The position numbers and the translations under genes were made by a program. The notes under the pieces were generated by a model that was not told the origin of the DNA, searched no databases, and saw only the letters and a list, made by a program, of their open reading frames with translations. Below, in pieces: positions 9,135-43,004 of a stretch of DNA of 64,000 bases (the first letter of the stretch is position 1; each line of letters starts with the position of its first letter). The DNA is from Trypanosoma brucei (lineage: Eukaryota): the NCBI GenBank assembly GCA_000002445.1, contig CH464491.1, positions 4,064,001-4,128,000 of the forward strand. Direction: 5' to 3'.

Positions 9135-11036
9135 TCACCTTCGCACCCCATAGTGGATCATGTAAGCAAATATAGCTTGTGCCCGCTCGGCCATCCCGTG
9201 TGAAAAGCACTTCTTCACCGCAGATTGAAAGGCAACCTCTGATATTGGGACGTGCAAATCACACATACGTGAAAAAAGTCGCACAGACACCTCCCAAGAT
9301 GCGCCAGGTGGTGGGGCCCGTTCCAACGCATACTGAACTGCGTCGTGCACTTTAGCCGATGGCAAGTAAAAATATCTGCGAACCGGATCATCCAAAAGTT
9401 TATCCAAGAACCAAAGGGCCTGTCTCCACTCTCCCTCTCTGGAAGATTGTAACAGTAAGTGTTCGTATGACTCGTTCTCCACCTTAATCCCCTTGGCTTT
9501 CATTACACGAGTCCACGAAAGTGACTCTCCGGCGGTGTTGGTGCTTCTTAGCATGACATTGAAGGCTCTTCCTGTGGCGTCCGCACCGAAGTGTTTGGAC
9601 AACTGCTTCTGACAAAGAAGCCTTGATGCCAAAGACCCCTTCTGACACTTATTCAACATACGAAACAGATCGAGGAAGATGTCAACAGCAATATGGTCTT
9701 GTGGAACGACAAGGTCCTCAGGCTTACTGTACACTAGGTACTGCTGCAATGTGCGCAAAGCCTCTACCCAACGATTACCACGGATGCATGCCTGCAACAA
9801 CTTTTGCGTTGCGTCGCGGTCGTCAGCAAGCAGCAGGTCACCTTGTTGAACCATTAGTGACGCGTAGTAAAGAGCCAGATACCACTGTTGTCGCAGTATC
9901 CGACACATATGGTAAACAGAAACCATATTCGGGGAAACAACCTTGTTGCGAGAGACGGAACCAAATCCATCTCCCTTATCTTTGCTTCCACCCTCAGGGT
10001 TTCTTCCACCCACCATGAAGCATTCAACTACCCGGCATGCCATCTGCCAGTTTTCTCTACACATGGTAAGAACCGCTAGAGCATCGTTAATTGGAGACGA
10101 TGTGGTTATATGCACGTCCGCTGTGTGCGCGAGGCCCAGCACACGGATTGCAAGACTCCACCACGACGGAGCTGAGGAGCCCAAGATTGAGTCCTCTGCC
10201 CTCCTTTTCTGCTTTCGCTCTTCTGTTGTACCCTGAGTAAGGCGCCCTTGTGAAGCACGGTAGATGCTGCGAAGGGCAGCTGCTACCTCTACCTCTGTCC
10301 ACGCAACAGGGGAAATTTCACCAAAGCACCGCAGCACCATCTCCCAGCGACCCGCGCTACTGAACAGCTCCATCGCAGCCCCCAACACTTTAGGGCTTAC
10401 CGTAACGTCAGACAACATCCGAATCGCCTCTTCCCACCGACCCTCTCGCGACAATTTCCTCGCGCAACTCACCGCAACACTGTCGCTAAGCATAAACTCA
10501 ACCTTCTCCGGCAGCCGTACGAAATCATCCACATTATTCTGATGGATATGCCGTACAATTGGCGCCATTTCCGGGTGGTAAATCAAGCGCGTTACCTCAG
10601 CACCCGCTTCGTCACTTTCTACAGAGAATAAAAGGGCTGTTTTAGCAAGTCGCCGCAAGGGCAGACAAGTGCAGTCGGTTGTGGTAATGGCAGACTTCTC
10701 TGCAACCACTTCGGTCGACACCTCCGATACCACGTTGTCCTCCTTTTCGCATCCTTGTGGAAAGAGTTTTTTTGGTTGATAACTCATGGGGAGTTTCTGG
10801 ATGTGGTCCTGCTTCTGTTGATGCATTTGATGCAGCTGGGCGTAGATATACCTGACAAGTGAAGGCATGTCATCACCACGTGCCAAACGAGACAGAAAGA
10901 AAGCGAACAACTTCGAGGCACATGACCGAGACTTCTCTCCACACACCGAGTGAGAGTCCGCAGAGGAGGAGGAGAGCGAAGGGAAGATGGAACTCGAGCA
11001 AGCACCATGGGACCCTTTACCGCCTTCGCTGCTCAT
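9135..11036 (-). CDS. Hypothetical protein with PPR-like helical repeats (possible organellar RNA-binding protein)
   Basis: 633 aa, ATG start. Contains degenerate ~35-aa helical repeats, e.g. WEEAIRMLSDVTVSPKVLGAAMELFSSAGRWEMVLRCF, GNRWVEALRTLQQYL and GEWRQALWFLDKLL. No catalytic motif. Confidence 0.35.
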   Translation of the reverse strand: MSSEGGKGSHGACSSSIFPSLSSSSADSHSVCGEKSRSCASKLFAFFLSRLARGDDMPSLVRYIYAQLHQMHQQKQDHIQKLPMSYQPKKLFPQGCEKEDNVVSEVSTEVVAEKSAITTTDCTCLPLRRLAKTALLFSVESDEAGAEVTRLIYHPEMAPIVRHIHQNNVDDFVRLPEKVEFMLSDSVAVSCARKLSREGRWEEAIRMLSDVTVSPKVLGAAMELFSSAGRWEMVLRCFGEISPVAWTEVEVAAALRSIYRASQGRLTQGTTEERKQKRRAEDSILGSSAPSWWSLAIRVLGLAHTADVHITTSSPINDALAVLTMCRENWQMACRVVECFMVGGRNPEGGSKDKGDGFGSVSRNKVVSPNMVSVYHMCRILRQQWYLALYYASLMVQQGDLLLADDRDATQKLLQACIRGNRWVEALRTLQQYLVYSKPEDLVVPQDHIAVDIFLDLFRMLNKCQKGSLASRLLCQKQLSKHFGADATGRAFNVMLRSTNTAGESLSWTRVMKAKGIKVENESYEHLLLQSSREGEWRQALWFLDKLLDDPVRRYFYLPSAKVHDAVQYALERAPPPGASWEVSVRLFSRMCDLHVPISEVAFQSAVKKCFSHGMAERAQAIFAYMIHYGVRR

Positions 11037-11397
11037 GCGTGACGGGCCCGTCAGGGGCTAGTCCCACTCCGTCTTTTCCTTCCTACAGTGTTCTGGTTTC
11101 TGTGACAAAGAAGAGAAATCTTCTTGGTAACAATGTAGATGAAAGTTAGAATGGAGAGAGAGGGAAATTTTCGCCATTGTGCTTCCGTTCCCTCCATGTT
11201 CGATTGCAACCATCACACAACCGTTATAGTTTCCTGACAATCAATTACCGTGCACAGCACAAGGAGCATCAACCAAACTACAACAGGGAGAAAGTAAACG
11301 CACAACCCTGATGTCAATAAGGCAACCATACGGGTAACAACAGACGCCGATCAGCCAAAACCCTACCAGTATCGGACAGCACACAATATTCATTCAC

Positions 11398-12642
11398 TTA
11401 AGCATTAGACCTCCGTGATAGGTACACGTTACCCGCGTTGTCCATTGTGTAGCCTAAGGAAACAACGTTATCCCGCACTGAAGCCTGAGATACGCGGAAC
11501 CACTCAACAGCCTCTTGTCTGGTTTGAGGTGAGAGATGTTTTGCCTTCATTTCAGTGTACAGGGAGTGCAACTTCAATACTGACCTCGCCACCTCGCTAA
11601 ATGGTACAGCAGACCTTCCATCGTTTGTCCACTGCTTCAGGAAAGTGTCAGTAAGACTCTTTAAATCTTCCCTATTCACTCCTGAAAGATCAGGTCCACC
11701 CACTGATTTACTCTTTTCGTCGGTTTCACTGAGCGCTGAGGTGGAAAGAACTGACACAGGGGGTTCACTCGTTGCAACTCCTTTGTTGTTGCTCTCCTGG
11801 GTTTTGGACGCAGACATCTTAGTCTTGCCTCCAGTGCTATTCTTCATTTCCACTTCACTTTCGTTGTCGTTTCTGTTAACAGCGCCGTTACTTTCGAATT
11901 TGCTCCTCTTACCAAAGGAACCTTCACTACCTTTGTCCCACAAATTTTTCGTATCCTGGCGTTTTCTGGGCTTTTCATCGTTCGAAGAATATCCTCCTCC
12001 ATCTTCACCTTCATCTTGATAATCATCATCAATATAGCTCCGCTTGAACTGAACTTTGCGCGTATCTACACCCGAGTACCACGAGCTTGAGATGCCTTCT
12101 CCGTCCTTTACTGTGCCCGCGCGCTCGCAACGGAGTGCGTGAATTGGTGTGTTGAGAGGCTTCAAGTCAGCAACACCAACATCACCATCCACGATTGCGG
12201 GGAGTGTTAGCAGAAAACAGCTCTTCTTTTCATACCCCGGGAGCGGTAACGAACTAAAACGCAGCTCCTCTTCCTCCTCCTCATCATCATCACCGGATAA
12301 GTGCGGTAAGCGAAGTGCACCACGATATACGGAACGGGTTGCACGACCCCATGCACTTCTCGGTGCTTCTAGAATATGAAGTGTCTTAAGGGAATGCACA
12401 TCCGAACCGGGCAAAGAAGTCACTGAAAAGAGGCGAAGCCCCGAATCCTTTTTTTTCGACTCCTCCTCCTCCTCCTCATCCCCCGAGTGCTCGCCGCTGT
12501 CAATAATGTACCTCACAACATGATGCTGTTCTGTCAAAGCGTCAGCTGCTCGTTGACGCTTTTCCGCTGCCAGGCGCGCATCCTCCTCGATTCGGTGCCT
12601 CGGTAACACAACAGGCACCACATCCAAGGTCTTCCGTATCAT
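11398..12642 (-). CDS. Hypothetical acidic, Ser-rich protein (poly-Glu/Asp stretches)
   Basis: 414 aa, ATG start. Contains EEEEEESKKK and DDDEEEEEE runs. Long ORF in the array orientation, with no recognisable domain. Confidence 0.5.
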   Translation of the reverse strand: MIRKTLDVVPVVLPRHRIEEDARLAAEKRQRAADALTEQHHVVRYIIDSGEHSGDEEEEEESKKKDSGLRLFSVTSLPGSDVHSLKTLHILEAPRSAWGRATRSVYRGALRLPHLSGDDDEEEEEELRFSSLPLPGYEKKSCFLLTLPAIVDGDVGVADLKPLNTPIHALRCERAGTVKDGEGISSSWYSGVDTRKVQFKRSYIDDDYQDEGEDGGGYSSNDEKPRKRQDTKNLWDKGSEGSFGKRSKFESNGAVNRNDNESEVEMKNSTGGKTKMSASKTQESNNKGVATSEPPVSVLSTSALSETDEKSKSVGGPDLSGVNREDLKSLTDTFLKQWTNDGRSAVPFSEVARSVLKLHSLYTEMKAKHLSPQTRQEAVEWFRVSQASVRDNVVSLGYTMDNAGNVYLSRRSNA

Positions 12643-14114: not shown

Positions 14115-15815
14115 TCACTGTCCCTCACTTAGACTCCCACAGATGCGCTCTTTTAGACAAGGAAACCCTTCTCTAACGTGATCAGTAAGGACGGTCTCAT
14201 CAGTGTCCTCTTCCTCGTCATTGCCTTCTTGGGAACTAGTGTCTTCATCCCCTTCACCGTTAGTTTCCTCATCCTCATCGATTACAACTTCCTCGTCAGT
14301 ACCCTCTTGGGAGCTGGTATTCTCATCTCCTTCACTCTCAGTCTCCTCTTCCTCATCAGTGTCCTCTTCCTCACTTTCTGATTCTTCCTCTTCATCATCC
14401 TCAATGACAGTCTTACGGGCCGCCCTGTCCCTCATCTGACTGTTCCGTTCCCCCTTCGCTGCAATTTGGCGCATTCGGGAAAAAAGGACAGAATCAGGTG
14501 GAAAGTGGTGGACTTCGTCAACCACAGCGAGCGGGAGGCTATGCATCAAAAAGGAAGGTCCGTACATGGTAAAATATTCACAGTCCTCGGGAACTTCAAC
14601 ACCCTTGTCTGTCGACAGGTCGGGAGACCACGAGAAGTAGCTGGTTTCACCGTTACGTAGAGCGGTTGCACAGCTAAATACGTCGCGTGTCAGTACCCCG
14701 GCCAGACGGGCCGCGACCACATCCACGTTGCAACTACCACCTAGCATGAGCACTTTCGCAGAATGACTTGCAGACTCGGTAAGAAGCGTACGAAGAATCC
14801 GTTGGTATCCTCCTATGGTTAAATTCAAAAGGCCATAGGGATCTCCAGATAAGGAATTCGACCCACAAACAACGACTACTGCTCCCAACTCGACCCCGGC
14901 CCTCCTGAACGCAGAATAGATGCCACGCTGGGCCATCGGCACAACAAGAGCGTCAGTTGCCCCCACAGGCAGTGGAATGTTCATGGTGTAGCCGCGTCCC
15001 AAACCACTCCCTATTTCTTCCAACGAACCGGTTCCAGGGAAGATTCCTATACCGTACGCATGAAGAGATAGGGTAACTACTCGAGGATCCGACAGAAAAG
15101 CCTCCTGCGCCCCATCACCATGATGAGCGTCAAGATCAACCGCAAGAACCACATTTCTATTCGCTGGTAGAAGTTTGCGTAACTCTAATACGGCGAGAAC
15201 AACGTCATTGACCAAGCACGAACCCCCAGCTGAAGCGCGCTTTGCATTATGTTTCCCACCCATCCAATGAATAGCGGCGAATCGGGATGGCTGTGCGAGC
15301 AAGCGAGTGGCCGCAAGTGTACCTGACACAACGGCCTGAGTGAATCGCCACATACCAGAGAAAGGCGCGCTGTCACCCACGAGGTTAAACCTTTTGTCCC
15401 CATTTTGTGGGAAAAGCACGAACGGTGGCAGGGGGGCTGAGCAACGTCTAGAAGCGAATCTTTTTGATGGCGTGCCCCTTATATTGCTGCATCCTGAAAA
15501 TGAGAGAACGTGCTCATCATCCCCCGAAGCCACCTCGCGTAAACTCAAATAGCGCACGTATGACTCGTCGTGGAACACAGTCATATCTTCCACATCAACA
15601 CTTGGTAGATTGCGATCGACCCATTCAAAAATGTCATTACAAAAGGCAGCTTCACCGCCTACTTCCTTCCGGGGGAAAGGGGTGCAGCCGTAATGACGCA
15701 CCATATCAATGATGAGTTTGTTGTGCTGAAGCGCGGGAAGACTAGCGGGTGCATCGACATCGGTACTAACGATGACTGCTACCGGCGGGATGGAAGCAGG
15801 AGGCTCCACAACCAT
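14115..15815 (-). CDS. Class I histone deacetylase homolog with substituted catalytic residues and acidic C-terminal tail (candidate DAC2-type)
   Basis: 566 aa, ATG start. Conserved HDAC core: GGKHNAKRASAGGSCLVNDVVLAVLEL, VDLDAHHGDGAQEAF, CGSNSLSGDPYGLLNLT. It aligns colinearly with human HDAC1 GGLHHAKK…IDIDIHHGDGVEEAF…CGSDSLSGD. C-terminal ~100 aa are Glu/Asp-rich. Confidence 0.8.
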   Translation of the reverse strand: MVVEPPASIPPVAVIVSTDVDAPASLPALQHNKLIIDMVRHYGCTPFPRKEVGGEAAFCNDIFEWVDRNLPSVDVEDMTVFHDESYVRYLSLREVASGDDEHVLSFSGCSNIRGTPSKRFASRRCSAPLPPFVLFPQNGDKRFNLVGDSAPFSGMWRFTQAVVSGTLAATRLLAQPSRFAAIHWMGGKHNAKRASAGGSCLVNDVVLAVLELRKLLPANRNVVLAVDLDAHHGDGAQEAFLSDPRVVTLSLHAYGIGIFPGTGSLEEIGSGLGRGYTMNIPLPVGATDALVVPMAQRGIYSAFRRAGVELGAVVVVCGSNSLSGDPYGLLNLTIGGYQRILRTLLTESASHSAKVLMLGGSCNVDVVAARLAGVLTRDVFSCATALRNGETSYFSWSPDLSTDKGVEVPEDCEYFTMYGPSFLMHSLPLAVVDEVHHFPPDSVLFSRMRQIAAKGERNSQMRDRAARKTVIEDDEEEESESEEEDTDEEEETESEGDENTSSQEGTDEEVVIDEDEETNGEGDEDTSSQEGNDEEEDTDETVLTDHVREGFPCLKERICGSLSEGQ

Positions 15816-37792: not shown

Positions 37793-39816
37793 GCTACTGC
37801 TCTCTTTCACCTTTTCTCCCTTCAACACGGTCCTCGCTTGGACTACACTTTGCCGTCACCACTTCCGTAATTTGAACAGTATAAATGATAACAACGATAA
37901 CAGTACTGACAATAGAAACAGTGGAAAGAGGAGATAAGGAAATTTGACGACGCGACTTCCTGTGTTTTTTTTATTATATTGCATATGGCGCACGTATCAC
38001 AATAACCGGAACGGCGTGAATAAACTATTTAAAAATATATATGAAAAATTAGCCTGTTAGTACAACGAAAGCTTTTTCCTTCAGCCCACTGGAATCAACC
38101 CTTTACAAATCGGTGTATAAAATTATGCTTCGCAACGGCGCCTGCTTCTCTCACCCCTTTTTTTTCTTAGCACTTCGTAAAACTTCTGGCGAAAAGTGTC
38201 CAACTTTGCCCATCCCCCTTCCAACTAATCCACAACAAGCCCACAAAAGGAAAAAGAGATAATAACTTTTTTTTCAAACAAAATAAAAAAGGAAAAAAAT
38301 GGAAAATTGGGCGGTTACATATATATATATATATATAGTATGTTCTATGTTTCTCATTTATCTTTCTTTTTTTCCCCTCCTTTACATTTATGGGGAGTAC
38401 AACTGTTCAAAAAAAAAAAAAGAAATAGTCAGCAACGGTAGGGGGGCACTGCGAAATATGAAGTGAATATTAGGAGATGGGTGACGTAGGGCTCGTATCA
38501 TTGTGTTCAACTGCAGCAACAAAACGAAGATAAGACGGAAATTTTCCTATGAGGAAGGATGAGGAATTCACTTTCACCTAACTCAGTGAAGGTACAACAA
38601 CTAAAAGATAAAAAAGAAAAAATAAACAGGACAAACAAACAAACAAACAAAAAAATGGAACAAACTTGTTGTATTATACGTTTTCTTTACCTTCCACCGA
38701 CCCTCAGGACATCTAACTCACTCCTATGCGCACATTAAAAGTTTGTTTTGTCCTTTTATTTTATTTTCTTTTTTTCTCCATTCATTATTTTCATTCACTG
38801 ATTTCCCACCCTATTTACACCTTTAAATGCCGTTACCGTATACCACATAATGATTTGCCACGCGATTTGGCAAGGAAGTGAGGTGAAGGGGGAAATAGGC
38901 GAATGGGATTAAAAAAAAAAAAGGGCAGCCGCTTTGCACCGATACAATTGAGTTTTTTTTTTTTTTAACGGAAAATAAAGTGCGGAAAAATGACGGTGCA
39001 CGTACCAGCACAAACAAAACGCGTGTGTGTTGCCGGAGGAGAAAAGTAAAATAACCCAAAATAAAATAAAGAAAGCTCAACAGGTGCCGTAGCAACAGTT
39101 TTTTTTTTTTTTTTGGGGGGGATTTCCTCAATTTTTACCTCCTTTGCTTTTCTCGAAAGGTCGGATCTCCTGCACATATTTAGCCGAGATTGAGAAGACC
39201 ACACTAAAGGAAAATACAAGGAGAATAAAGAAAAAAAAAAGAAAGCCAAGAAAGAAAGAAACAAAATCAAGGGGGTGGGGGAGCGCAGGAGGTAAGGAGA
39301 GCACCAGATGGAAAAATAAAAGATTCAAAAAGGACGTAAAACAAACAAAAATAAGAATAATAAGAACAAAAATAATAACCTGCAACTGATGATAGACGTC
39401 TCACTGGGTGCTTTACTAACAAATAAGTAACTATATAAACAAAAACATAAAGGTTTAATCAATTAGTCCCCTTCGTTCCTTCCTTTCCTTTCTTTCGACT
39501 GGCCCTCAACCGTTCCGTCACGAATCATCATATAAATTTATTTTCGCAGAAAGTAACTGTTTCAACCCTTTATTTTGCTTCTATTGTTTTTTTCTATTAT
39601 TATAATAATAATATATATATGTATTTTTTTTCTGTTCAAGTATCATTTCAACCAATGGCTAACTCGTACGGAAAACGTTGTCATTACCGTGCGTCAGTTC
39701 GTCTATTTCGCTAACCCTTGTAACAATGCATAAATATATACGTATACATATAATCAATTTAAATATCTGATCTCAAGAATAAAAAACAGAGTGAAATAAC
39801 AAGGAATTTTACTATA

Positions 39817-39851
<35 letters not shown>

Positions 39852-40886
39852 GATCAGGTCAATATCATGATTTCGTTGAGAATCCATTGAGTAAATGATT
39901 TCCTTTGATATAGAGAAGTTGATGCGATGTTTTATATTTATTTATACATGTCGCCGCTTCATCCTTTGCAAAGCACCTCCTTTTACCTTCTCTCCTTTCT
40001 CCTAATTGCTACCAACATAATAGTTGTTATTTCAATTGTTCTTCCGTTTTGGTTCCCGCTGAAACGAAACAAAGTTAATTAATTTCCTCCATTTATTTTG
40101 ATTTATGAAGTTTCCCGCGACAATCAAAAAAAAAAAAAACACAAGACTCTCTTTCTTTCCTGCAATCATAAAGTGACTAATTTAATCTTTATTTATTATA
40201 TTTCCCCCTTCTCTGTAGCTCCTTCTTCATGGAAATTATTATTCATTATCATTGGTGCCTTTTATTATGATTCACCAGTGGTGCACAACAGTCGTTGCGA
40301 TATTTGAGGCTTACCACTGGGAAAAGGTAAAACAACACATACAAAAAGAGAGATACAATGATGGCATTGATGGTGGCGGTGGAACAAGGTGATTAAAAAA
40401 AAAAAACAATAAACGAAAAGTAAAAAAAAAGCAGGAAGTGATACAACACAGTGCCACGAATACCAAAAACGCATTCGTAGACGCGTAGAGGTCGAACTAA
40501 CGTCGCGCACGTAAAGGAGAGAGAGAAAAAAAAAAGAAGGAGAGTACAGAGACGAGGGTAAATGAGAACGACAGTGGAGGGTATAAAGACGAATGCGTGT
40601 ACGCGCGGGTGAAGAAGGAAGAAAAGGGAAAGGGAAAGGAAGTGAAGAGAAGTGAGGGAAGGGAAGGGAAGGAAAAGCACAGCGATGAGGAAAATAAGTT
40701 GAAACGAAACAGATGGGCCGAAGGAAAATGTTGTAGGGATAAACAGACAAAAAAGTCTGTGCATACGCACTCTTACACCTGTGCATGAAACTTATCCCGT
40801 GTGCACAGCGGATATCCTAGACCACAATGACACGCCTACATTAAAGAGTCAAATATGATTAAAATAACCGTCCTGCTTCCCTTGAG
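37783..40886. other. 3.1-kb ORF-poor, AT-rich low-complexity island inside the same-strand gene array
   Basis: The only ORFs of 100 aa or more are low-complexity poly-F/L/K translations. It carries (TA)n at 38321-38339 and 39814-39848, (CAAA)n at 38631-38660, poly-T/poly-G at 39091-39120, and several purine-rich plus-strand tracts (38561-38660, 39221-39300, 40596-40700), which are polypyrimidine on the coding strand. Confidence 0.6.
39814..39848. repeat. (TA)n microsatellite
   Basis: tatatatttatatatatatatatatatatatatata. Confidence 0.9.
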
Positions 40887-43004
40887 TTACACCACACTCG
40901 ACCGCCGCCACTGAGGAGTTGCCTCCAACATTGTTTCATCCTCTTTCCATATGGGAAAGCGTGGCGTCTCGGATAGAATAACTGGATGCATGTTGGGCAA
41001 CCGGTACTCGCTCCACAATGAGTTTGGTGATGGGGTCAAAAGCGGCTGCGTGTCCAGCAACGGGTCTCGGGTTTCCACTGAACTAAGCGGTTGCATGAGC
41101 TGTAACACGAGTTCGTGCATTTGTCGCTCTATTCTATGCTTACGGAGCACGTCTACGAAATTGACTCGGTTGAGCTCCCACACTTCTGTTCCATCATCAG
41201 GTGCAACAATGCTACACGTCCACGGGTGACGTCGCACACAGGTGTAGCCAACGATGCTTCCATCAGGAACGCGTGGCAGACTCGCCCACTCCCTTGCCTG
41301 CACAGTGCCTTCCGCATTACGTTGCACTACACCTTCGTCTTCCACTACAACTGCACCGCCTTGGCAGAAAAGAATGACGGAGTTGCACTCACTTCCACGC
41401 TCCACGATGCATTGCCCCGCTTCGTATCTCATCAATTTAAAACGTGCTGCGCAATCCGTATAGAAGCTGTCATGGGGACCGCAGAGACCCACCAACGGCA
41501 TTTTCCGCAACTGCTCTATAAAAAATGGTGAAACATTCACTCGGTCTGTTTTGTTATCGCGCGGTCGGAAGACATGGCTGGCGATGGAATTGTTGGCAAT
41601 TGTAACACGTTTACTGAAAACACCTGCAGCACCTTGCCCGCGTTGTATCAACTTAGGCACCTGTGAGGGGCTCAAAACGACAGTTTTGAGTACATCGAGA
41701 GAAGGAGGAACGAAACGCATCCCGTCAAAGCACTTATCGGCAGTCAGACTGATGACTTTAGCAGCGCGATGAATCTGTTGTCGGATATTTTGATCCCGTT
41801 TCATGAACGAAGAAAGAACAGAAAACGGCAGAAGGTAGAGGTCCACATTGGTCAGGGTAAAAAATTTATCGCCTAGTCCCTCATGGAACATGCACTGCCA
41901 TTCGCCAAAGGTATGTCCTTCCGAAAATAATGTGCGGCTCCTTGGTTGTGACGGAGGAGCACCGCCCATGGGAATAACCGCCTCCTCCTGCTGGAGGCAC
42001 ACTACGCCACGCCAAATAAAGAATATGTGTCGGGGAGCTTCCCGTTCTCCTATTTGCACACCAGCGGGCCTTACACGAGGCACGAGATGCTCCATCAACT
42101 GCAACAAATCTCTATCGCTGAGTGACACCAGCAGTGGGCAGATTCGCATACGGTTGCATGTCATACATCCAAAGTGCGGGAGCAGCCGCTCCCTCGTCTC
42201 GAGTGCTTTCATAAGAAGAGATCTGTGAATCTGCGGGGGAAACGATCCTAGCAGGGTGCAGTAGGCGCTTTTTGGTATCCATCCAATCAACACTACAGAA
42301 GACTCCGCCAGTAAGTACTCCGTACAGGGAAAACTCCCTACAGCAGAGCATTCCCCAAGTATAGTCGGGGCAGACAACAACGTGTTCCTCTGAGTTCGCA
42401 GAGCCTCAGACTCAATACTTCCTACACTCATTTTTTCACTGCACTGAGTCGATGGCGTAGCAACAATAGGACCCTCGTCGTCATCGTACGTGATAGAGAC
42501 TTCCACGTGAGAACTAGACAACCTCCTATCGTGTGACACCCTCCCTCTAGTTTGGCTAACAGTTGAGCATTTCTTAACAATACCTTTCGCCACGAATACT
42601 ACCGCGTTTGAGGGTTCTCTGCTGTACTGGATAAACTCACCTCGTAGATATACTCTATAGCTTATAGAATCCAGTAGCCTCTTGAGTTGCTCGTTGTTAT
42701 TCTCTAGTTCATCCACCGCGTTGGATTTTTTTAGGCAGGAACCCAACACGGAACGCTGCCTGAGAGCCCTGAAAAGCAACGGTTCCATTTTCACCTCCTT
42801 GCTCATATCCCTCGCGACTCGTTCCCGATACCACCTGGCAATATATCGACGAGCAATGGGATATAACAACCGCCGTAACGCTGCAAAAGCAATGGCTCGC
42901 ACCTCCTCACGGGTGGCGGACGGGTATTGCATCAGCTGCCATCCGAAAGGTACCGTTACCTGCGAGGCCGCGACACGCCTGGAAGCCGCCCACCTGCTGT
43001 CCAT
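40887..43004 (-). CDS. Hypothetical protein with possible cyclic-nucleotide-binding-like repeats
   Basis: The ORF track starts at a TTG (43022); the ATG is at 43004 (MDSRWAAS…), giving 705 aa. FGE-type segments (GHTFGEWQCMF, LGECSAVGSF) and repeated beta-rich blocks resembling cNMP-binding domains. Weak. Confidence 0.4.
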   Translation of the reverse strand: MDSRWAASRRVAASQVTVPFGWQLMQYPSATREEVRAIAFAALRRLLYPIARRYIARWYRERVARDMSKEVKMEPLLFRALRQRSVLGSCLKKSNAVDELENNNEQLKRLLDSISYRVYLRGEFIQYSREPSNAVVFVAKGIVKKCSTVSQTRGRVSHDRRLSSSHVEVSITYDDDEGPIVATPSTQCSEKMSVGSIESEALRTQRNTLLSAPTILGECSAVGSFPCTEYLLAESSVVLIGWIPKSAYCTLLGSFPPQIHRSLLMKALETRERLLPHFGCMTCNRMRICPLLVSLSDRDLLQLMEHLVPRVRPAGVQIGEREAPRHIFFIWRGVVCLQQEEAVIPMGGAPPSQPRSRTLFSEGHTFGEWQCMFHEGLGDKFFTLTNVDLYLLPFSVLSSFMKRDQNIRQQIHRAAKVISLTADKCFDGMRFVPPSLDVLKTVVLSPSQVPKLIQRGQGAAGVFSKRVTIANNSIASHVFRPRDNKTDRVNVSPFFIEQLRKMPLVGLCGPHDSFYTDCAARFKLMRYEAGQCIVERGSECNSVILFCQGGAVVVEDEGVVQRNAEGTVQAREWASLPRVPDGSIVGYTCVRRHPWTCSIVAPDDGTEVWELNRVNFVDVLRKHRIERQMHELVLQLMQPLSSVETRDPLLDTQPLLTPSPNSLWSEYRLPNMHPVILSETPRFPIWKEDETMLEATPQWRRSSVV

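Follow-up and report, generated by a model that had tools for sequence, protein, structure and literature searches.

Histone Deacetylase 2 of Trypanosoma brucei Is Probably a Retained Pseudo-Deacetylase With a Dismantled Active Site

Introduction

Class IIa histone deacetylases (HDACs), i.e., HDAC4, HDAC5, HDAC7, and HDAC9, have low activity and have been proposed to serve as readers or scaffolds. Only the transition-state Tyr is replaced in these proteins, by His; no zinc ligand is lost, the His pair is intact, and weak activity is retained. The HDAC/arginase fold has also diversified in its reactions, with polyamines as the substrates of HDAC10 and fatty-acyl lysine as that of HDAC11, and HDAC8 mutants without the catalytic Tyr (Y306F) serve to trap substrate. 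The solved structures closest to the protein described herein are those of Trypanosoma cruzi DAC2 (7q1b and 7q1c), reportedly determined by Marek and colleagues and published in 2021 (Cell Rep 37:110129). T. cruzi DAC2 is a validated drug target with species-selective inhibitors.

The loss of catalytic residues in T. brucei DAC2 (TbDAC2) is said, in secondary statements, to have been published by Ingram and Horn in 2002. The secondary literature describes the critical residues as absent in TbDAC2 only, and the protein is reported to be cytoplasmic. DAC2 mRNA goes up during differentiation (PMC2753553), and DAC2 has been reported missing from Leishmania. The initial annotation of the locus mentioned a reported non-essentiality, and this is borne out: dac2 null lines exist (PMC2253726), DAC2 shows no fitness loss in any condition of an RNAi screen covering bloodstream, procyclic, and differentiation stages (PMC8559703, supplement), and reviews class it as non-essential. 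In the accessible literature, enzymatic assays were found for DAC1 and DAC3 only, and none for TbDAC2. Publications naming Tb11.01.7240 or Tb927.11.15600, the two gene identifiers of DAC2, added no function, and in at least one case the gene served as a control probe.

Identity and Fold of the Protein

The window analyzed herein is a stretch of 64,000 nucleotides (contig CH464491.1, positions 4,064,001 to 4,128,000). One ATG-to-stop open reading frame (ORF) on its reverse strand encodes a protein of 566 amino acids (Table 1); the initial annotation had named no strand. The protein matches XP_829617.1/Q381M6 residue for residue, an entry annotated as "histone deacetylase 2" (DAC2/HDO2) from T. 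b. brucei TREU927 and located on a contig of 5.26 Mb. The opposite strand within the gene carries no ORF of 100 or more amino acids. The initial annotation had guessed at the DAC2 gene of chromosome 11, and the guess was right; the four motifs it quoted (GGKHNAKRASAGGSCLVND, VDLDAHHGDGAQEAF, CGSNSLSGD, and MLGGSCNV) are all found in the ORF. Both the DAC2 identity and the loss of catalytic residues are correct and already known, and are not new.

Table 1. Features of the DAC2 gene of T. brucei, in window coordinates
Feature	Position	Strand	Basis
Complete coding sequence of T. brucei DAC2, 566 aa + stop, Tb927.11.15600	14115..15815	-	ORF; exact match to XP_829617.1/Q381M6; gene ID from PMC8559703 supplement
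Short non-acidic C-terminal end, residues 541-566 + stop	14115..14195	-	Sequence; low pLDDT, short helix 555-559
Tandem repeat, 78-nt (26-aa) unit, 2.3 copies, building most of the acidic tail	14196..14372	-	Tandem Repeats Finder score 214, 73% matches
Acidic Ser/Thr-rich tail, residues 473-540, predicted disordered	14196..14399	-	Composition, AF2 pLDDT
Class I HDAC fold, residues 1-475, including kinetoplastid-specific inserts	14391..15815	-	PF00850 residues 70-365; 7q1b alignment residues 9-480; AF2; Foldseek
S361-C362-N363 for Gly-Gly-Tyr of GGGGY; N363 = HDAC1 Y303/T. cruzi DAC2 Y371	14727..14735	-	Alignments
Y327 in place of pocket-rim Leu (HDAC1 L271)	14835..14837	-	Alignments
N320 (AAT) in place of third zinc ligand Asp (HDAC1 D264)	14856..14858	-	Alignments
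D227-L-D229-A-H231, intact charge-relay Asp and two of three zinc ligands	15123..15137	-	Alignments
S199 in place of tunnel-wall Phe (HDAC1 F150)	15219..15221	-	Alignments
H189-N190, catalytic His-His pair changed to His-Asn (CAT AAT); N190 = HDAC1 H141	15246..15251	-	Alignments
Residues 98-130, low-confidence (probably disordered) kinetoplastid-specific insert	15426..15524	-	pLDDT <50; insertion relative to HDAC1/8
H31 codon, replacing an Arg invariant in all other compared sequences (HDAC1 R34)	15723..15725	-	Alignment

The protein matches PF00850 (Hist_deacetyl) with E = 1.3e-51 and 176 bits, against a gathering cut-off of 27.9. The AF2 model (pTM 0.73) has a confident core, and Foldseek gives this model target-normalized TM scores of 0.89 to T. 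cruzi DAC2 (7q1c), 0.78-0.81 to HDAC8, and 0.73-0.76 to HDAC1/2/3. Part of the insert at residues 98-130 is also missing from the 7q1b crystal construct.

The low-confidence C-terminus of the model, approximately 90 residues long, encloses the acidic stretch. The acidic tail noticed in the initial annotation is real, whereas the size and composition given there, a poly-Glu/Asp tail of about 100 residues, are not: the strongly acidic part spans 68 residues, of which 41 are Asp or Glu and none is Lys or Arg. Ten S/T-x-x-D/E sites lie between residue 470 and the C-terminus. The last 90 residues contain 32-56 acidic residues in every Trypanosoma DAC2 orthologue, compared with 9-11 outside the genus. 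The tail is thus common to all Trypanosoma DAC2 proteins, including the active T. cruzi one, and is therefore no adaptation of a dead protein. Together with the cytoplasmic location of the T. brucei protein, this leaves the suggestions of nucleic-acid mimicry and of histone binding by the tail unsupported.

Residues of the Active Site

Residue numbering was transferred through phmmer alignments to HDAC1 (5icn_B) and HDAC2 (7kbh_A), which are gap-free near the motifs and, as had been claimed for the core, colinear with class I HDACs through every catalytic motif. N190 corresponds to H141 of HDAC1, D229 and H231 to D176 and H178, N320 to D264, and N363 to Y303. The catalytic columns come out the same in a MAFFT alignment of 16 sequences, and His, Asp, or Tyr cannot be brought back there by moving gaps. 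Hence the three replacements originally described (His, Asp, and Tyr, each to Asn) and the intact D-x-H zinc ligands stand. The list was nevertheless incomplete, because five further changes are also specific to T. brucei; the whole set, in HDAC1 numbering, is R34H, H141N, F150S, D264N, L271Y, G301S, G302C, and Y303N. The Arg column of H31 is presumably that of HDAC8 R37.

Briefly, the tandem His pair (H140-H141) is broken, with Asn in all T. brucei-complex sequences; the Asp-His-Asp zinc site (D176, H178, and D264) is incomplete, with only D229 and H231 present; and the GGGGY loop bearing the transition-state Tyr reads GGSCN. Residues H140, D174, D176, H178, D181, D99, and F205 are kept, and the charge-relay Asp residues (D174/D181) and the K+-site motif are retained as D227, D234, and S250. 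Each catalytic Asn codon is one first-position change away from the ancestral-type codon (CAY, GAY, or TAY to AAY). N190, N320, and N363 are found in TREU927, T. b. gambiense, T. equiperdum, and two further T. brucei haplotypes; five independent sequences agree, and a sequencing or assembly artefact is therefore ruled out as the source of the Asn residues. Given these substitutions at catalytic columns, the earlier prediction of severely altered or absent catalysis is a reasonable one.

The replacements are concentrated at the active site. T. brucei-specific changes fall in 6 of the 12 active-site columns and in 19 of the 151 invariant columns elsewhere (Fisher p = 0.0036), an approximately 7-fold enrichment, while 138 of 163 DAC2-invariant positions (85%) are still present. 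Among 56 columns invariant in six other kinetoplastid DAC2 proteins and three class I HDACs, T. brucei alters six and each other species 0-3.

Orthology and Evolutionary Rate

The top solved-structure match of TbDAC2 is 7q1b (E = 1e-150), and comparison with this orthologue from another kinetoplastid, of the kind proposed in the initial annotation, places H, D, and Y at the columns of N190, N320, and N363; the triple Asn is absent from T. cruzi DAC2. N363 is aligned to Y371 (full-length numbering), named as the catalytic tyrosine of T. cruzi DAC2 (PMC9048117). In the tree, T. brucei falls within a Trypanosoma DAC2 clade with 100% bootstrap. The gene order, comprising a gene of ~1000 codons, DAC2, a 287-aa HAD hydrolase, and a gene of ~430 codons, is common to T. 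brucei, T. grayi, and T. cruzi, and the flanking genes (335, 624, 997, 287, and 414 aa) are 41-58% identical to their T. grayi and T. cruzi counterparts. Protein searches yielded no T. congolense or T. vivax DAC2 orthologue among the matches in the databases searched, and the genomes themselves may carry one. A profile search with a 12-sequence DAC2 alignment retrieved no further named DAC2 and also missed the homologues P0125-P0127.

Lineage acceleration was judged on the Angomonas outgroup and on neighboring genes, because HDAC1 (30-35% identity), with which the Tajima test is not significant, is too distant an outgroup. With Angomonas, the same test counts 56-65 changes unique to T. brucei against 26-34 in other species (p 1e-4 to 0.02), and T. 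brucei-T. cruzi divergence exceeds T. grayi-T. cruzi divergence by a factor of 1.53 in DAC2, compared with 1.08-1.21 in four neighboring genes.

Degenerate Homologues in Other Lineages

Two further full-length DAC2-family ORFs have broken active sites, namely P0126, from a monoxenous trypanosomatid, and P0127, from an Angomonas relative. P0126 comes from the sequencing runs SRR29202206, SRR29272302, and SRR35235976, and P0127 from SRR31861013. In P0126 the tunnel is changed by G149R, F150E, F205A, and L271E, and the differences among three sequencing runs are all synonymous. P0127 groups with Angomonas and loses D176 and H141. In T. rangeli (P0005), D264 alone is changed, to Gly, in one assembly. 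The degeneration of P0126 and P0127 is independent of that in T. brucei, which is a modestly new point. P0126 was also considered as a fast-evolving salivarian (T. vivax-like) DAC2 whose D-to-N and Y-to-N changes would be ancestral and held in common with T. brucei. This was rejected: it lies outside the Trypanosoma clade in the tree, its flanking genes are unmatched anywhere in the window, and a neighboring Kelch gene is closest to Leishmaniinae (Lotmaria/Leptomonas).

The active sites of T. brucei, P0126, and P0127 have been broken independently, and T. brucei and P0126 converge on D264N and Y303N.

A broader generalization, put forward here only tentatively and judged rather unlikely, would be that DAC2 is a deacetylase repeatedly inactivated in trypanosomatids with the protein kept, a conserved non-catalytic function (acyl-lysine binding or scaffolding) outliving catalysis and inactivation perhaps being selected.

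Retention and Possible Roles of the Protein

TbDAC2 is quite probably a retained pseudo-deacetylase, in which the HDAC fold is kept and the active site is dismantled. It is the African-trypanosome orthologue of the active, essential class I deacetylase DAC2 of T. cruzi. The second His (general acid/base), one of three zinc ligands, and the transition-state Tyr with two positioning glycines have been lost or changed, as have the tunnel Phe, the pocket-rim Leu, and a conserved Arg at an internal cavity. Judged by its residues, TbDAC2 should be incapable of zinc-dependent lysine deacetylation, and moderate purifying selection may be maintaining it as a pseudoenzyme of the cytoplasm. Any role left to it would not involve catalysis: it would bind proteins or act as a scaffold, by way of the conserved surfaces of the fold and the acidic CK2-type tail found across the genus, and this role would be dispensable in culture.

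Purifying selection is suggested by a dN/dS of 0.31 (p = 0.028 against neutrality), although this value derives from only 14 substitutions, 7 synonymous and 7 nonsynonymous, between TREU927 and another strain; the neighboring HAD gene gives 0.30. All five T. brucei-complex sequences seen carry the ORF uninterrupted and at full length, with the three Asn residues in place. Both observations argue against a functionless relic, one that the T. brucei lineage no longer needs and that is drifting toward pseudogenization with no non-catalytic role, as do the 85% of invariant positions kept, the clustering of changes at the active site instead of an even spread, and the synonymous-only variation of the independently dead P0126. 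Such a relic would agree with the viable null mutants and the absence of an RNAi fitness cost, with the approximately 2-fold faster T. brucei branch, with the reported absence from Leishmania and the lack of T. congolense and T. vivax orthologues in protein searches, and with independent active-site degeneration in other lineages. It would also agree with an HDO2 allele carrying Pro for L228, inside the metal-binding D-x-D-x-H motif, which hints at further decay. On balance we consider a relic unlikely.

A second alternative, an acetyl- or acyl-lysine reader or substrate trap in which Asn kills hydrolysis and the polar pocket still binds, comparable with class IIa HDACs, seems quite improbable. 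The tunnel of TbDAC2 is altered (F150S, L271Y, and GG to SC), that of P0126 is more thoroughly wrecked, and the zinc that normally binds the acetyl carbonyl is one ligand short. All three catalytic residues did become Asn by single first-position changes, and P0126 independently acquired two of them, which would fit such a reader; however, the two shared Asn residues may be coincidence, since a uniform choice among single-nucleotide neighbors gives a probability estimated at roughly a few percent. The rim Asp (D99) and F205 are kept in TbDAC2, which would also suit a reader, and several HDAC8 trap structures with a bound tetrapeptide substrate are among the Foldseek matches.

Residual or different chemistry is possible in principle: Asn is able to ligate metal, and the site retains its first His, two of its zinc ligands, the pair of charge-relay Asp residues, and those of the K+ site. 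An enzyme in which an Asp-His-Asn metal site and a single His serve another reaction or substrate is nonetheless highly improbable. The diversified HDACs have given up neither the His pair nor the Tyr nor any metal ligand, whereas TbDAC2 has lost its general acid/base, one metal ligand, the oxyanion Tyr, and the Gly loop together, and the different residue subsets lost in other lineages look like decay, not redesign.

Comparison With Known Systems

Since the DAC2 of T. brucei is dispensable and predicted to be dead, the DAC2-inhibitor strategy would not transfer to sleeping sickness, as workers in the field already recognize. A single class I HDAC that occurs in active, dead, and lost form across one family of parasites could also help separate catalytic from non-catalytic HDAC roles.

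The closest known system is T. cruzi DAC2, a syntenic orthologue that is 52-54% identical, has a TM score of 0.89 to the T. brucei AF2 model, and shares the kinetoplastid-specific inserts, the C-terminal extension, and the acidic tail. By contrast, it keeps the HH pair, the Asp ligand, GGY, F150, and R34, which are lost in T. brucei; it has a designated catalytic Tyr and was crystallized with hydroxamate inhibitors. In the T. cruzi literature DAC2 is treated as an essential gene, whereas TbDAC2 is dispensable.

Human class I HDACs (HDAC1/2/3/8) share PF00850, 33-36% core identity, and colinear motifs with TbDAC2, and HDAC1 has a similarly acidic, Ser-rich C-terminal tail. TbDAC2 differs from them in the eight replacements from R34H to Y303N and in its extra inserts, and the human enzymes are nuclear or chromatin-bound, whereas TbDAC2 is cytoplasmic. 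Class IIa HDACs resemble TbDAC2 in having the HDAC fold, a replaced transition-state Tyr, and a proposed non-catalytic role. TbDAC2, however, belongs to class I, its Tyr has become Asn instead of His, and H141, D264, F150, and the Gly loop have been lost as well.

Gene identity and genomic setting

The protein encoded by the minus-strand reading frame (Pfam Hist_deacetyl, E=1.3e-51) is 100% identical to XP_829617.1/UniProt Q381M6, "histone deacetylase 2" of T. b. brucei TREU927, whose gene is located on a 5.26-Mb contig; the guess of the initial annotation that this is the chromosome 11 DAC2 was right. The gene is referred to in the literature as DAC2, HDO2, or HDAC2 (Tb11.01.7240, Tb927.11.15600), and no overlapping ORF of at least 100 aa is found on its opposite strand. 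The window contains 24 ORFs of at least 250 aa, all but one on the minus strand, the lone plus-strand ORF overlapping a longer minus-strand one, and no tRNA genes; it fits the interior of a single trypanosomatid polycistronic transcription unit. GC skew is negative nearly throughout, and one AT-rich stretch represents an intergenic or UTR region of unusual length.

Coordinates of TbDAC2, other window features, and newly found homologs
Feature	Location	Strand	Description
TbDAC2	window 14115..15815	-	single 566-aa ORF
Codon 228 (L228P allele)	window 15132-15134		inside D-x-D-x-H (VDPDAHH)
Adjoining genes	window 9135-12642		414-aa gene, then directly a 633-aa gene; compared with L009:13320-20257
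AT-rich stretch	window 37800-40900		~3 kb, GC 0.29-0.37 vs ~0.49 elsewhere; no ORF of at least 250 aa; between two minus-strand genes
P0126	L004:5075-7162; also L005, L006		full-length DAC2 homolog
P0127	L007:86-1984		single contig, SRR31861013, GC 0.64

Active site of TbDAC2

The closest solved structure is that of T. cruzi DAC2 (7q1b, E=1e-150), which differs at the catalytic motifs in carrying GGRHHAK, CGSDALSGD, and GAGGYVD; the Tyr of the last, at position 371 when the full-length protein is numbered, has been named the catalytic tyrosine (PMC9048117). Phmmer alignments of TbDAC2 to human HDAC1 (5icn_B) and HDAC2 (7kbh_A) are gap-free across all motifs, and residue counting places H189/N190 at HDAC1 H140/H141, D227, D229, and H231 at D174, D176, and H178, N320 at D264, and S361, C362, and N363 at G301, G302, and Y303. 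The same columns were obtained from two independent MAFFT alignments with kinetoplastid orthologs and fungal/vertebrate class I HDACs. The Asn residues at the catalytic His, Asp, and Tyr columns are real and removed by no gap adjustment, and the D-x-H zinc ligands (D229, H231) are intact. The three Asn are shared by TREU927, T. b. gambiense DAL972, T. equiperdum, and another two T. brucei haplotypes, and each codon is one first-position change from the ancestral His, Asp, or Tyr codon.

The second His of the HDAC pair is the general acid/base, as established in HDAC8/HDAC1 biochemistry; the Tyr polarizes the carbonyl and stabilizes the tetrahedral intermediate, the two preceding glycines let it flip in, Phe forms the lysine tunnel, and Arg gates the internal cavity. 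Of 16 functionally defined positions, eight differ between TbDAC2 and the family (R34H, H141N, F150S, D264N, L271Y, G301S, G302C, and Y303N), while D99, H140, G149, D174, D176, H178, D181, and F205 are kept; the three substitutions originally described are present, but the damage is wider. T. brucei alters six of the 56 columns invariant in six other kinetoplastid DAC2 and three class I HDACs, each other species zero to three. Where the other six DAC2 are invariant, it alters 6/12 columns of the active site vs. 19/151 elsewhere (Fisher p=0.0036, odds ratio 6.9); the loss is focused on the catalytic center.

TbDAC2 is very probably catalytically dead, judging from its sequence. Its fold is most likely that of a class I HDAC; the structural K+ site may be retained, and perhaps a metal, weakly bound, as well, but TbDAC2 would be unable to activate water or stabilize the tetrahedral intermediate, and hence to deacetylate lysine. 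The predicted severely altered or absent catalysis is supported at this level. A passage of PMC10143871, citing Ingram and Horn (2002), states that, of the four TbDACs, only TbDAC2 does not preserve the critical residues. The observation is confirmed and its interpretation supported, but the finding rediscovers what had already been published on this annotated gene. Activity assays among TbDACs concern only DAC1 and DAC3.

Orthology, rate, and retention of the gene

Gene order around DAC2 (RsmB-like ~335 aa, ~600-aa gene, ~1000-aa gene, DAC2, 287-aa HAD hydrolase, ~430-aa gene) is common to T. brucei, T. grayi, and T. cruzi. In T. grayi and T. cruzi, the latter with two copies, the ~430-aa gene is directly followed by MIP/aquaglyceroporin genes; within the window, the 414-aa gene adjoins the 633-aa gene, which matches a T. 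cruzi gene past both MIP copies, so T. brucei is without MIP genes at that position.

A neighbor-joining tree places the other Trypanosoma DAC2 as sister group to that of T. brucei (genus bootstrap 100%). With Angomonas as outgroup, the T. brucei branch is approximately twice as long as the others. Tajima tests with this outgroup gave 56-65 T. brucei-unique changes vs. 26-34 (p from 1e-4 to 0.02) and were not significant with the much more distant HDAC1. The ratio of T. brucei-T. cruzi to T. grayi-T. cruzi divergence is 1.53 for DAC2 vs. 1.08-1.21 for four neighboring genes, and the acceleration is therefore gene-specific.

That TbDAC2 is a functionless relic heading for loss is rather unlikely. 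An L228P allele in the metal motif, carried by three Logan assemblies (L001-L003) and by the original GenBank record of HDO2 (AAL86697.1), suggests that constraint on the metal site itself has been lifted. The related haplotype P0124 keeps Leu at codon 228, and the two T. brucei haplotypes show seven amino-acid differences in all. TbDAC2 is nevertheless still a gene: the ORF is unbroken in 5/5 T. brucei-complex sequences; TREU927 and another strain differ by seven synonymous and seven nonsynonymous changes, with dN/dS of 0.31 (p=0.028 against neutrality, 14 differences), equal to that of the adjacent HAD gene (0.30); and 138/163 DAC2-invariant positions are retained. AlphaFold2 with the family alignment predicts the core with confidence (pTM 0.73), this core overlays T. 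cruzi DAC2 at a TM of 0.89, and DAC2 mRNA is reported to go up early in bloodstream-to-procyclic differentiation (PMC2753553).

Acidic tail, localization, and proposed role

Residues 473-540 comprise 41 D/E, 14 S/T, and no K/R, with ten CK2-type S/T-x-x-D/E sites between residue 470 and the C-terminal end; the tail is predicted to be disordered and is mostly made up of a 78-nt (26-aa) tandem repeat in 2.3 copies. Similar tails terminate every Trypanosoma DAC2 ortholog, active T. cruzi DAC2 included, whereas homologs outside Trypanosoma have no comparable tail; the C-terminus of vertebrate HDAC1 is likewise acidic and Ser-rich. The tail thus predates the catalytic loss and is uninformative on a pseudoenzyme role specifically. 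The earlier proposal that it mimics nucleic acid or binds histones is unsupported, given its presence in the active enzyme and the cytoplasmic location of TbDAC2 (PMC2941730, PMC8559703, TrypTag), which speaks against action on chromatin or histone tails. A function as acyl-lysine reader or trap is improbable, and one as an enzyme of altered chemistry very unlikely.

The reading of TbDAC2 as a cytoplasmic pseudoenzyme with an HDAC fold, no deacetylation, and a remaining non-catalytic role dispensable in culture is likely as a whole. The reported non-essentiality holds: null lines exist in T. brucei, a genome-wide RNAi screen found no fitness loss under any condition, and reviews describe DAC2 as non-essential and cytoplasmic, with no ortholog in Leishmania.

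Other degenerate DAC2 homologs

An exhaustive representative search yielded further independently degenerate homologs beyond T. brucei, which are modestly new. P0126, from a non-Trypanosoma trypanosomatid, occurs in three runs (SRR29202206, SRR29272302, SRR35235976) with only synonymous differences, is placed outside Trypanosoma in the tree, and neighbors a gene closest to Lotmaria and Leptomonas (~48% identity). With H141A, G149R, F150E, F205A, D264N, L271E, and Y303N, its active site appears dead independently of T. brucei; that two independent lineages share D264N and Y303N is suggestive, though chance could explain it. P0127, clustering with Angomonas (97% bootstrap), is degenerate in another way, with R34Q, H141R, G149D, D176G (VDLGAHPGDG), and F205T and with D264 and Y303 kept. 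T. rangeli SC58 DAC2 has Gly at D264 (CGSGALSGD) and is otherwise canonical; in this one assembly (1.8-kb contig), the change could be real or an assembly error. Together with the reported Leishmania loss, DAC2 looks like a gene repeatedly inactivated or lost across trypanosomatids, yet essential in T. cruzi.
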